Positions 5,046 through 8,496 are shown, numbered from the stretch's first letter. The stretch: 64,000 nucleotides of DNA from Candidatus Woesebacteria bacterium (GCA_013374835.1 CP055307.1:215315-279314), one strand, 5' to 3'. The notes: generated from the sequence alone by a model not told the origin. A program made the numbers and translations.

Positions 5046-5594
5046 ATGAAAAAATTTTTGATGCCGGTTTTAGTTTTGGCAGTCATTATTGTTTTGGGAG
5101 TATCATATTTTTTCTTGAAAGATGGTGGATCGGCTGATAATGTTGTTGTGTCTTATAATGTTGAGGAGGCCGGCTCTGCCGATAAGTCGAGCGGGGTTGA
5201 AATGATTACTGGCTCTTTAAAGGATATGATAGCCCGTGGATCCGGATTGAAATGTAGTTATGAGATTGATGGGAACGTTTATGAAGGATATATTAAGGGG
5301 GCAAATTATAAAGGTAGTATTGATACCGCAGAAGGACAGATGGGACAAGTAATAGTTAAGGATAATTGTAGCTATACTTGGATTGAGGGACAAAGCCAGG
5401 GGATAAAAGCTTGCTATGATGAGAGTGAAATCGAGTCTGGTGGACAGGGATCTGATGTTTGGAAACAAGTAGATTACGGTGGTGATGTTGTTTATAATTG
5501 CGAATCTTATAATATTTCTGAGTCAATGTTTAATCTTCCTTCAAATGTGGAGTTTGTGGATGTTAATTCCATGATGGAGGATTTTGGGTATTAA
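5046..5594 (+). CDS. Hypothetical exported protein with N-terminal signal/TM anchor
   Basis: MKKFLMPVLVLAVIIVLGVSYFF hydrophobic N-terminus. Overlaps the start of the downstream PHP gene by 11 bp, indicating an operon. Confidence 0.5.
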   Translation: MKKFLMPVLVLAVIIVLGVSYFFLKDGGSADNVVVSYNVEEAGSADKSSGVEMITGSLKDMIARGSGLKCSYEIDGNVYEGYIKGANYKGSIDTAEGQMGQVIVKDNCSYTWIEGQSQGIKACYDESEIESGGQGSDVWKQVDYGGDVVYNCESYNISESMFNLPSNVEFVDVNSMMEDFGY

Positions 5595-6882
5595 TGGCGT
5601 GAAACTGATTGTAGATTTGCATTTACATTCTCATTATTCGCGGGCGACTAGCCATAATATGGATCTTTTCTCGCTTTATAGCTGGGGAAAGCTTAAGGGC
5701 ATAAACATAATCGGTAGTGGCGATTTTACGCATCCTTTGTGGCTGGCTGAGTTAAAAGAGAAACTTGAACCTGCCGAGAATGGTCTTTTTAAGCTAAAGA
5801 AAAAATTTTCGGATTCTTTGGACAGGGCCTTACCAAAAAGCGTACGGGATAGTGTTTTGCGGTTTGTCTTGACTGTTGAGATAAGCAATATATACAAAAG
5901 AGGGGGAAAAGTAAGGAAGGTACACAATGTAGTTATTTCTTCCGAATTCAAAAGCGTTGACAGGCTAAATGCCAGACTTTCAAAAATTGGGAATTTAAAG
6001 TCAGACGGGAGACCGATACTTGGACTTGATAGTGAGGAGTTGCTAAAAATTACTCTTGACAGCGGACCTGGCAATTTTTTTATACCAGCTCATATTTGGA
6101 CCCCCTGGTTTTCGATGTTTGGAAGTAAAAGCGGTTTTGATTCCGTTGAAGAAGCCTTTGGGGAGAGTTCGAAATATATCTACGCGGTTGAAACAGGCCT
6201 TTCATCCGATCCTTATATGAATTGGAGGGTTAAGGATTTGGATGGTTTAACTTTGGTTTCCAATTCCGATGCTCATTCGCCAAAAAAATTGGGGCGAGAG
6301 GCGAATGTTATTGATTGCGAGATTGATTACGATCAAATTATGGATGCAATAAAAAGCGGAGATGAGCGTTTTGTTGGTACTATTGAATTTTATCCAGAAG
6401 AGGGTAAATATCATTATGATGGACATAGGACGTGTAATATATGTATGTCACCCGAGGAGGCGTTGAAAAATAATAATATTTGTCCGAAGTGTGGTGAACC
6501 CTTGGTTTTGGGGGTAATGCATAGAGTGAATGATCTTTCGGATAGAAGTAGCGGATACAAACCCAAAAAGCATAAAAGTGTTGAATATATTGTTCCTCTT
6601 GATAATATAATAGCGGAGACTCTGGGGATTTTTTCCGTCAATGCAAAGAGTGTAACTGGAGTTTATAACGAGCTTTGTGCTTTGCTGGGGAGCGAGTTTA
6701 GTATATTAAGGGATGTTAATTTGGCAGATATTGAGAAGGCTGGTGGAGTTAGGCTTAGGGAAGCTATTGAAAACATGAGAAGCGGAAATTTAAAGATTGA
6801 GCCGGGGTATGACGGTGTGTTTGGGGTGGTAAAAGTTTTTGAGGGAAAGAATTCTTCTAATCAGCTCACATTTGATATTTAG
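5584..6882 (+). CDS. PHP-domain nuclease with C-terminal zinc ribbon, endonuclease Q (EndoQ)-like
   Basis: N-terminal PHP motif VDLHLHSHYS; internal motifs FIPAHIWTPW, GLSSDPYM, SNSDAHSPKKLGRE, GKYHYDGH. A CxxC...CPKCG zinc ribbon (CNICMSPEEALKNNNICPKCGEP). From memory, this architecture matches archaeal and bacterial EndoQ. Confidence 0.7.
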   Translation: MGINGVKLIVDLHLHSHYSRATSHNMDLFSLYSWGKLKGINIIGSGDFTHPLWLAELKEKLEPAENGLFKLKKKFSDSLDRALPKSVRDSVLRFVLTVEISNIYKRGGKVRKVHNVVISSEFKSVDRLNARLSKIGNLKSDGRPILGLDSEELLKITLDSGPGNFFIPAHIWTPWFSMFGSKSGFDSVEEAFGESSKYIYAVETGLSSDPYMNWRVKDLDGLTLVSNSDAHSPKKLGREANVIDCEIDYDQIMDAIKSGDERFVGTIEFYPEEGKYHYDGHRTCNICMSPEEALKNNNICPKCGEPLVLGVMHRVNDLSDRSSGYKPKKHKSVEYIVPLDNIIAETLGIFSVNAKSVTGVYNELCALLGSEFSILRDVNLADIEKAGGVRLREAIENMRSGNLKIEPGYDGVFGVVKVFEGKNSSNQLTFDI

Positions 6883-8496
6883 ATGGAGCTTAATACTAAT
6901 CAAGCTAAATTTGTAGATTATGGGGAGGGACCCCTTTTTGTTATTGCCGGACCTGGAACCGGAAAGACGCATTCTTTAGTTTGTCGGATTAAGAAGCTTC
7001 TTCAAAACGGCGTGGCCGGAAATGAGATACTGGTATTAACTTTTACCAGAAAGGCTTGTTTTGAGATAAAAGAGAGGCTTTTTGAATTTGAGAATAAGGG
7101 GTGTAGGGTACACACGTTTCACTCTCTGGCTTATGAGCATTTGAATCGTTTTTCCGACATTGATATTGTGAGTAATGATGAAAGGTCTAAGATACTTAGA
7201 AATTTAAAGAAGAAATACGGTTTGGACCTTTCCGATCGGGAGATTTCTTTGGCCGTGTCGAATAAAAAGGCTAATTTATTAGCTAATGCTGGTAGGTTTG
7301 TGGAAAACGTTCTTAAAGATTATAACAGATTACTTAAACAAAAAGGACTAAAAGATTATGATGATCTTTTGCTTGATTATTTAAGATATCTGAAAAAGGC
7401 AAAGATGGGTTATAAATGGGTGCTTGTAGATGAGTTTCAGGATGTGAATGACGTTCAGTATGAGATATTGAAGAAATTTGAGAAGGAAACGAGAAATATT
7501 AATGTAATTGGGGATCCAAACCAGTCTATTTATACTTTTAGAGGTTCTGTACAGAGTGTCTTTAAAAGATTTGAACTTGATTTTCCGGATTCCGAAAGAA
7601 TTTTTTTTGACAAGAATTACAGAAATAGTAGGGAGATAATTAGCTTTAGCAGTCGGTTGTTTGAAAGTGAAGCTTATAAATACGAGCCGGTAAGACAGGA
7701 ATCTGGGCGGGTGTGTGTTGTGTATGTGGCAAACGAATATGCAGAGGCAAGATGGGTTGTTAATTTTATTAAAAAAAGGATGGGTGGACTTGATTTGAAT
7801 GAAGTGGGTGCGCAAGACTCAGCTGATGTAGGGTTTGGTGATTTTGCAATAATTTACAGAACACATAGGATTGGTAGAATTGTACGAAAAATGATTGAGG
7901 ACTCTGGTATACCACACCAAGTGGTGGGTGAGGAATCTTTTTTTGAAAATAGCGAGGTGAAAAAAGTTTTATCGATTCTTTCTGAAAAACGCTATTTTCA
8001 TATGAAGCTTAGTGTTTGTCTTGAGGAATTTTTAAAAAAGGACAAATTTGTTAAAAAATCTAAAAAGTTTGATGATTTTTTGAATTATGTTTCTTTGTAT
8101 TCAGATTTAGATGTGGGTGCGTTTTTAAATATAGTTGAGGATGTAAGGAGAAATGAATACTACGATAAAAATGCAGATCTTTTGACTATTATGAGCATGC
8201 ACGCTTCTAAGGGCCTTGAGTTTAGATTTGTTTTTCTAATCGGATTTGAAGAGGGTGCAATCCCTTATTTAAAGGCAGGAGAAGATGATGGGCGGTTGGA
8301 TGAAGAAAAAAGGCTTTTATATGTAGCTATGACAAGAGCAAAAGACGAGCTTTATTTGATGAGTTCGTTGAATAGGGATGGTGCTAATTGTCAGGTTTCA
8401 AGATATTATTATGAATTAGAAGGTGTTGAGGTGGAGAGAGTTTTTCGAAAAAAGAGTTCTAAGCGTCCTAAAACTACGCAAATGGATTTGTTTTAA
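6883..8496 (+). CDS. UvrD/PcrA/Rep-family superfamily 1 DNA helicase (537 aa, short form)
   Basis: Walker A AGPGTGKTHSL, motif Ia TFTRKA, motif II VDEFQDVN, motif III GDPNQSIYTFRG, motif VI VAMTRAKDELYL. Its start codon directly abuts the PHP gene stop. Confidence 0.85.
   Translation: MELNTNQAKFVDYGEGPLFVIAGPGTGKTHSLVCRIKKLLQNGVAGNEILVLTFTRKACFEIKERLFEFENKGCRVHTFHSLAYEHLNRFSDIDIVSNDERSKILRNLKKKYGLDLSDREISLAVSNKKANLLANAGRFVENVLKDYNRLLKQKGLKDYDDLLLDYLRYLKKAKMGYKWVLVDEFQDVNDVQYEILKKFEKETRNINVIGDPNQSIYTFRGSVQSVFKRFELDFPDSERIFFDKNYRNSREIISFSSRLFESEAYKYEPVRQESGRVCVVYVANEYAEARWVVNFIKKRMGGLDLNEVGAQDSADVGFGDFAIIYRTHRIGRIVRKMIEDSGIPHQVVGEESFFENSEVKKVLSILSEKRYFHMKLSVCLEEFLKKDKFVKKSKKFDDFLNYVSLYSDLDVGAFLNIVEDVRRNEYYDKNADLLTIMSMHASKGLEFRFVFLIGFEEGAIPYLKAGEDDGRLDEEKRLLYVAMTRAKDELYLMSSLNRDGANCQVSRYYYELEGVEVERVFRKKSSKRPKTTQMDLF

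Follow-up and report, generated by a model that had tools for sequence, protein, structure and literature searches.

The stretch of DNA analysed here (64,000 nucleotides from a Candidatus Woesebacteria bacterium, GCA_013374835.1, CP055307.1:215315-279314; hereafter the window) carries on its plus strand, at positions 5046-8496, three closely spaced open reading frames (ORFs): a small gene that we call orf1, a homologue of Endonuclease Q (EndoQ) and a UvrD-family helicase. Because fusion or adjacency of EndoQ and helicase recurs across bacteria and relatives of the helicase keep EndoQ upstream, the locus is, as judged from its sequence, the split two-gene form of a widespread EndoQ-helicase module. 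We consider it probable that the pair, tethered to the clamp, removes uracil, hypoxanthine and abasic sites by nick-and-unwind excision repair. The window locus is an ordinary, intact member of this module and probably not a defence system.

Gene layout and selection

The three ORFs (5046-5594, 5584-6882 and 6883-8496) had been described in an earlier note, made by a model from the sequence, as an exported protein, an EndoQ-like nuclease and a compact UvrD-family helicase in one host operon. All three are present, and they form one tight gene unit in the host chromosome. With the stop of orf1 at 5594, a nuclease start at TTG 5584 gives an 11-nt overlap and a start at GTG 5599 a 4-nt gap; the GTG is the likelier EndoQ start, because independent gene callers chose it and the N-termini of homologues match it. 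The helicase ATG (6883) stands immediately after the EndoQ stop codon TAG (6880-6882), and the tight spacing suggests that the three genes are translationally coupled.

A public assembly contains an identical locus, and the names of homologues point to Patescibacteria as the group of the organism. A sister genome (GCA_002329465.1, locus L083) holds the same three genes at 93% DNA identity. The ratio of non-synonymous to synonymous change (pN/pS) against this genome is 0.29 for orf1, 0.14 for EndoQ and 0.20 for the helicase. Because these values are low, all three are real genes under purifying selection. The features of the module, all on the plus strand, are as follows.

5599-6882, plus strand: Endonuclease Q homologue, 427 amino acids (aa); PHP catalytic domain, C4 zinc finger and C-terminal helical domain; full-length match to structure 5zb8
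6862-6879, plus strand: EndoQ C-terminal hexapeptide QLTFDI, of beta-clamp-binding type (QLxLxL type); from sequence and the C-termini of homologues
6883-8496, plus strand: EndoQ-associated UvrD-family (superfamily 1A) helicase, 537 aa; from Pfam, NCBIfam, the PcrA alignment and an AlphaFold2 model
7981-8175, plus strand: remnant of helicase subdomain 2B, residues ~367-431, three short helices and no GIG motif; from the PcrA alignment and the model
8479-8493, plus strand: helicase C-terminal pentapeptide QMDLF, of beta-clamp-binding type (QL[SD]LF), on a disordered basic tail

The nuclease is an EndoQ homologue

The EndoQ-like character proposed for the nuclease is borne out by an end-to-end alignment with the solved P. 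furiosus enzyme (PfuEndoQ, 5zb8; E=7.6e-46, query 11-420 to chain 6-384), to which it is 34% identical. The motifs quoted in its favour (DLHLHSH, ETGLSSDP, SNSDAHSP and CPKCG) are all found in the translation. In the alignment, the PHP metal ligands H8, H10, E94, H109, H165 and D224 correspond to Pfu H8, H10, E76, H84, H139 and D193, while R138 and H226 align with the essential Pfu R114 and H195. The zinc cysteines C279, C282, C295 and C298, which include those of the CPKCG sequence, match Pfu C249, C252, C268 and C271. For the lesion pocket we compared Pfu H139, T142, E167, L168, G169, L170, N191 and D193, together with the steric gate formed by H139, G169 and S171; residue roles were taken from published work (PMC5961232; PMC8307549). 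Seven of the eight pocket residues are identical (H165, T168, E198, G200, L201, N222 and D224 are kept), and the gate residue Ser171 is kept as S202.

The annotation of related proteins agrees with this assignment: close homologues are labelled 'endonuclease Q family protein' by NCBI, and a public protein identical to the window EndoQ carries a precomputed match to PF27218 (MJ0043_C). We conclude from the conserved residues that the nuclease is a genuine EndoQ homologue, which should nick DNA at deaminated bases. Across phyla EndoQ keeps 50-65% identity and the helicase only 27-40%.

Two side observations concern the EndoQ family as a whole. Several Patescibacteria homologues (P0019, P0023, P0049 and others; alignment columns ~290-300) have lost the second C4 cysteine, with sequences such as 'RVCKVRF' or 'AKCDVSL', unlike the window EndoQ, which retains all four zinc-finger cysteines. 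In addition, NCBI or JGI records call many EndoQ proteins of ~430 aa (for example P0023, P0043, P0061 and P0015) 'DNA helicase UvrD' or 'PcrA'; since fused EndoQ-helicase proteins exist, this misnaming is most simply explained by annotation transfer from them.

The helicase has a complete motor and a reduced 2B subdomain

The second enzyme matches the Pfam families UvrD-helicase (E=2e-47) and UvrD_C (E=2e-37) as well as the PcrA structure 1pjr (E=2.7e-58), in agreement with its first description as a compact UvrD-family helicase. Its motifs are intact (AGPGTGKT 22-29, DEFQD 183-187, GDPNQSIY 210-217, NYR 245-247, HASKGLEF 440-447 and VAMTRAK 481-487), and the motif columns are invariant across 42 homologues. 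The AlphaFold2 model has a mean predicted local distance difference test score (pLDDT) of 88.9 and a predicted template-modelling score (pTM) of 0.88; its top structural matches in Foldseek are PcrA, UvrD and Rep, with template-modelling (TM) scores of 0.72-0.78. Motifs and model together predict a catalytically complete helicase with a PcrA/UvrD/Rep-like fold.

Alignment to PcrA places residues 3-366 on PcrA 12-399 and residues 385-524 on PcrA 511-653, so that ~110 residues of PcrA subdomain 2B (400-510) and the whole PcrA C-terminal domain find no counterpart. In the 2B position the model has helices at 376-386, 394-404 and 411-423. The protein ends near PcrA residue 653 and continues into a short tail (524-537) that is disordered in the model, with pLDDT below 50. 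Motifs IV (NYR) and V lie 195 aa apart in this protein; the median distance is 217 aa among its 120 closest homologues, which are from Patescibacteria, and 271 aa in the fused or adjacent helicases of other phyla. Measured by this spacing, the reduction of 2B is a Patescibacteria trait. The protein falls short of the NCBIfam equivalog cut-offs for PcrA (271.7 against 911.2), Rep (236.7 against 951) and UvrD (212.8 against 1144).

EndoQ and the helicase are linked across bacteria

To place the pair in a wider context, an EndoQ alignment was scanned against one representative genome per GTDB species (185,579 species). At least 600 stretches matched and 597 were confirmed, of which the best 80 loci were kept. 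They fall into the following classes.

37 of 80 loci: EndoQ and helicase in one ORF (~1030-1190 aa); Desulfobacterota, Chloroflexota, Bacteroidota, Gemmatimonadota, Myxococcota, Firmicutes, Latescibacterota, Binatia, KSB1, Fibrobacterota and others
13 of 80 loci: adjacent genes on the same strand, EndoQ always first; Patescibacteria, Planctomycetes, Omnitrophota and Elusimicrobia
27 of 80 loci: no helicase downstream; mainly Nitrospirota/Thermodesulfovibrionia and some Saccharibacteria
3 of 80 loci: cut by a contig end

Among the 77 informative loci, a helicase is fused or adjacent in 50. Whether nuclease and helicase are conserved as neighbours had been proposed as the check on their association; they are co-conserved, and in 37 of the 77 informative genomes they have become a single protein. 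We regard the fusion as a Rosetta-stone link between EndoQ and the helicase. Cultivable organisms such as Sorangium and Fodinibius are among the carriers of the fused gene. The association also holds in the reverse direction: EndoQ lies upstream on the same strand in 4/4 sampled helicase relatives (35-39% identity). In two of these four the genes are separated, at one locus (L089, 63-5195) by a DDE transposase and a 130-aa gene and at another (L091, 1391-5213) by an inositol-monophosphatase gene, so the pair tolerates being separated. In the 80 loci, Pfam profiles of the genes closest to the module on either side gave no repeated family and hence no recurrent third gene.

EndoQ is regarded in the literature as essentially archaeal, bacterial EndoQ being described as rare and confined to a few genera (PMC4357722). 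Our data indicate that EndoQ is common in bacteria (at least 597 species genomes) and that there it usually comes fused to, or next to, a UvrD-family helicase of its own, with clamp-docking peptides on both.

Some further observations bear on the arrangement of the pair. In the window, as in the sister genome, EndoQ and helicase share a reading frame that is split by a single TAG (6880-6885), and read-through of this TAG would restore the fusion architecture of other phyla. We considered programmed read-through and rejected it: in-frame spacing is not enriched, occurring in 4 of 13 independent split loci of the genome scan, the raw tally of 10/23 including repeat copies of the window's own lineage. 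Separately, two independent Patescibacteria loci have NUDIX hydrolase genes no more than a few kb away from the pair (L089 8048-8458; L091 184-648 and 5255-5683). The cases are few, and they might hint at a link to sanitation of the nucleotide pool.

Both proteins end in clamp-binding-type motifs

The consensus for binding the bacterial beta sliding clamp is QL[SD]LF or QLxLxL. Both proteins of the module end in a predicted sliding-clamp docking motif of this type: EndoQ closes in QLTFDI (QLALDI in the sister genome) and the helicase in KTTQMDLF (QIDLF in the sister genome). EndoQ homologues likewise end in Q-x-x-L-F/L variants, and stand-alone EndoQs in GQxxLF. On the helicase side, Q[LMIV]x[LMIF]F is found within the last seven residues of 37 of 44 partner helicases and in 0/499 background ORFs from the same loci (Fisher p ~1e-50), the remaining partner helicases having mostly QxxLF variants. 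Among the closest helicase homologues, whose overall identity is only 33-40%, Qxx[LMIF][FLM] closes 113/120, in [KR][KR]xQxxLF-like tails. Most of the fused proteins (30/37) retain a QxxLF internally, directly behind the EndoQ domain, in addition to a terminal QLxLF.

Clamp docking has precedent in the family. Archaeal EndoQ binds PCNA through a C-terminal PCNA-interacting protein (PIP) box and is stimulated by it, and Shiraishi et al. (2016) noted beta-clamp motifs in the C-termini of bacterial EndoQ (PMC4858679).

A proposed nick-and-unwind repair pathway

For the excision repair that we favour, the substrates, the contacts with the clamp, the loading and direction of the helicase and the downstream steps are all inferred, as follows. 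With its C-terminal QLTFDI, EndoQ would dock on the beta sliding clamp; it would flip the damaged residue (uracil, hypoxanthine or an abasic site) into the pocket and cut the phosphodiester 5' of the lesion, leaving a 3'-OH and a lesion-bearing 5' end. The helicase, docked through its QMDLF tail, would then load at the nick and move 3'->5' on the undamaged strand, peeling off the lesion strand in the way PcrA works behind a plasmid Rep nickase; it may also free EndoQ from its product. Finally, a polymerase would extend the 3'-OH, the displaced flap would be removed and a ligase would seal the nick.

Published models of the EndoQ pathway invoke a helicase that they do not name (PMC4357722; PMC8438529), and the partner described here is a concrete candidate for this missing step in EndoQ repair. 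A search of full-text literature, subscription papers lying outside it, returned no paper that links EndoQ with a UvrD-type helicase or reports the clamp motif of the helicase partner; the fusion itself may already be displayed in domain databases. The module predicts an alternative excision pathway organised by the clamp. More tentatively, and with somewhat less than even confidence, we hypothesize that this pathway has not been described before, is widespread in bacteria (>15 phyla, usually as one protein of ~1100 aa) and combines a lesion-specific nickase with a 2B-variable UvrD-type motor, both tethered to the clamp. It would possibly be the main route of uracil and hypoxanthine removal in genome-reduced Patescibacteria, and might also restrict uracil-DNA phages.

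Several points weigh against the repair pathway as drawn. The characterised bacterial EndoQ, from Bacillus, is a distant stand-alone form, so the activity of the present clade is predicted from sequence. Its substrate range could differ, given that the sole change in the pocket replaces Pfu L168 by T199 and that the match to NCBIfam TIGR00375 reaches 155.3 bits against a cut-off of 326.6 and covers residues 109-414 only; the window EndoQ clade is divergent from the seed of that family. The clamp motifs are short peptides, and their binding to the clamp is predicted. Both the unwinding direction and what becomes of the flap are conjectural. The best 80 loci are the top matches to a query derived from Patescibacteria and not an unbiased census, and even among them the helicase is absent downstream in 27 of the 77 informative ones; because of these loci, the helicase is to be seen as an accessory that is not obligatory for EndoQ function.

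Repair, defence and other explanations

The earlier note left undecided whether the genes form a repair module or an anti-phage cassette. As a cassette, the pair would attack DNA entering the cell, whether Gabija-style or by restricting phages with uracil or other non-canonical bases, with the helicase driving processive destruction. Gabija (the OLD-family nuclease GajA with the UvrD-like helicase GajB) is likewise a two-gene combination of a nuclease and a UvrD-like helicase, and the window helicase matches GajB hidden Markov models (best E=6e-70). Yet it scores higher against PcrA (271.7 bits) than against the best GajB model (234.6 bits), which may reflect generic UvrD similarity, and no GajB chain is among the top 50 fold matches. 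PADLOC run on the three proteins returned only generic GajB and DRT helicase matches, leaving EndoQ and orf1 without a match at E<=0.01. We rejected membership in Gabija: the nuclease belongs to the PHP family and not to the ATPase-TOPRIM OLD nucleases, the locus lacks a GajA-type OLD/TOPRIM partner and has neither defence-island context nor mobile carriage, and both proteins bear clamp motifs. In a full-text literature search with the same scope as above, no defence system combining PHP and UvrD proteins was described. The idea that bacterial EndoQ acts in antiviral defence, against uracil-DNA phages, has been relayed in a review (PMC8307549); the patchy distribution, with the helicase missing in 27/77 loci, would fit it, as would an integrated element 6 kb away in the window. 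Against it, EndoQ was not found in 50,697 phage records (tblastn), in a scan of IMG/VR or in mobilisable plasmid records. The single plasmid match was a 733-kb non-mobilisable Brevibacillus replicon with a Bacillales-type EndoQ, 29% identical. Neighbours in the 80 loci are varied housekeeping genes (LeuRS, FtsZ, permeases, TGT), with PADLOC matches in only 2/73 upstream and 6/67 downstream neighbours; the module in the window is flanked by a two-component system and two MacAB-type efflux sets. The context of the module is neither mobile nor defensive. Furthermore, the conservation of EndoQ across phyla is unlike that of fast-evolving defence genes, and the docking-type motif that each protein carries points towards the replisome and repair machinery of the host. 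The balance leans clearly towards repair, and we judge an anti-phage cassette improbable; restriction of uracil-DNA phages is possible as a side effect, one that the context does not suggest.

Within a cellular role, two other accounts have to be weighed against the excision repair proposed above. The operon might be incidental, the helicase being simply the general PcrA/UvrD of the genome, active in nucleotide excision repair, mismatch repair and replication with no dedicated EndoQ partnership. PcrA, Rep and UvrD are indeed its nearest named families, Patescibacteria genomes are small (a protein identical to the window EndoQ is encoded on a contig of 901,682 nt) and might have few helicases, and no second UvrD-family gene was seen within the 64-kb window. 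We nevertheless regard this account as very improbable. The two enzymes are fused in 37 genomes of large-genome phyla, including the 14-Mb genome of Sorangium, which presumably carries separate UvrD/PcrA genes; EndoQ is upstream in all four sampled helicase homologues; and the helicase scores far under every NCBIfam equivalog cut-off, lacks the PcrA/UvrD C-terminal domain and the greater part of 2B with its GIG motif, and bears a clamp-motif tail specific to its family. In the other account, the helicase would work less by excising the damaged strand than by promoting turnover or hand-off, clearing tightly bound EndoQ or the clamp off the nicked product, or the pair could act at the fork on newly incorporated deoxyuridine or deoxyinosine monophosphate (dUMP or dIMP) rather than on bases deaminated spontaneously. 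A structural study has proposed that DNA-bound EndoQ recruits the enzyme of a downstream pathway (PMC5961232); clamp tethering suggests a coupling to replication, and EndoQ stands without the helicase in the same 27/77 loci. Such a role is compatible with every observation and is a variant of the nick-and-unwind repair rather than a contradiction of it; taken by itself we hold it to be unlikely, if less so than the other accounts.

Comparison with known systems

The window EndoQ shares with the characterised enzymes (P. furiosus, T. kodakarensis and Bacillus pumilus) the PHP domain, C4 zinc finger and C-terminal helical domain, identical metal ligands, a near-identical pocket and a clamp-docking-type peptide at the C-terminus. 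Where archaeal EndoQ has its PIP box for PCNA, however, this clade has a beta-clamp-type motif, and whereas the characterised EndoQs stand alone, this clade is fused or adjacent to a helicase in 50/77 informative loci. With UvrD, PcrA and Rep the partner shares the fold and helicase motifs, and the proposed logic is alike, in that a partner endonuclease nicks and the helicase unwinds from the nick. The difference lies in the partner, which would be EndoQ and not the MutL or UvrAB of mismatch and nucleotide excision repair (UvrD) or the Rep nickase of rolling-circle replication (PcrA), and in a build that is without most of 2B, the GIG motif and the C-terminal domain and has a clamp-binding-type peptide at its end.

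More remote parallels exist. AddAB, RecBCD and AdnAB, which are more distant structural matches of the helicase, likewise join a UvrD-family motor to a nuclease, but they have PD-(D/E)xK nucleases and act on double-strand ends, whereas here a predicted lesion-specific PHP nickase lies N-terminal to the motor. EndoMS/NucS, a clamp-activated mismatch endonuclease, has a fold and a substrate unrelated to those of EndoQ and no dedicated helicase partner. It is likewise a repair endonuclease of archaea and bacteria, and it needs a clamp-binding peptide at its C-terminus (cited in PMC8438529).

orf1 and the upstream region

Three features precede the module.

5046-5594, plus strand: orf1, 182 aa; hydrophobic anchor or signal at the N-terminus, several cysteines; ORF, pN/pS as given above
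4741-5040, plus strand: decayed remnant of a 216-aa exported-protein gene; from comparison with the sister genome
3339-4740, no strand assigned: ORF-poor stretch outside the module; no ORF >92 aa

orf1, described in the earlier note as an exported protein, is a real gene whose product is membrane-bound or exported; it is an orphan without a tie to the nuclease-helicase module. It has no match in Pfam, NCBIfam or PADLOC and no homologue in the 80 EndoQ loci, and among 5.8 billion proteins it forms two clusters, namely itself and one sister at 85% identity. It is probably a lineage-restricted orphan passenger, co-transcribed with the conserved module and lying outside it.

Upstream of orf1 a pseudogenised stretch of 1.3 kb had been reported. 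The ORF-poor stretch measures 1.7 kb (3339-5045), and a pseudogene is demonstrable only at 4741-5040, where the sister genome has an intact 216-aa exported-protein gene directly upstream of orf1. The remnant aligns to it by blastn at 72% identity (L083 9541-9781 to window 4741-4937), against 93% for the flanking DNA, and by tblastn at 38% identity over residues 66-216 in two reading frames. Synteny with the sister genome breaks at ~4740, and 3339-4740 is unmatched there. Six-frame fragments of 3339-4740 gave only a spurious Rad33 match in Pfam, and a phmmer search with a 73-aa fragment against 1.84 billion representative proteins gave only weak matches to repetitive or unannotated proteins. 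Searches of the ORF-poor stretch against Rfam gave no match at gathering thresholds and a single sub-threshold snoRNA match in E-value mode; a repeat search gave nothing notable, and promoter and terminator scans stayed at background level.

The 1.4 kb at 3339-4740 have a negative GC skew, and the cumulative skew of the window reaches its minimum at 4615. We do not take this minimum as a replication origin: it coincides with a switch of gene strand from minus to plus, and nothing origin-like was found, DnaA boxes and AT-rich unwinding elements not having been searched for.

Other features of the window

Immediately downstream of the helicase, a Pro/Thr-rich ORF of 179 aa with hydrophobic ends on the minus strand (8502-9041) overlaps a Gly/Val-rich ORF of 120 aa on the plus strand (8575-8937). 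In the sister genome the gene caller took the counterpart of the plus-strand ORF (115 aa, 90% identical).

Further along, a ~40.5-kb integrated element occupies 14422-54973, with a 10-bp direct repeat at its junctions, TGGATGAGTT, at 14412-14421 and 54978-54987. It interrupts a comM-like gene, of which 13499-14446 encodes the first 315 aa and 54938-55597 the C-terminal portion; in the sister genome comM is unbroken (510 aa), and YraN and DprA follow it. The GC content of the element is 46.7%, compared to 39.3% and 37.5% in its flanks. It begins with a tyrosine integrase (14609-15679), and its cargo includes a 1795-aa polyvalent protein with LPD38 and PARP-like domains (17948-23335), a C39-like peptidase and an 866-aa amidase-domain protein.

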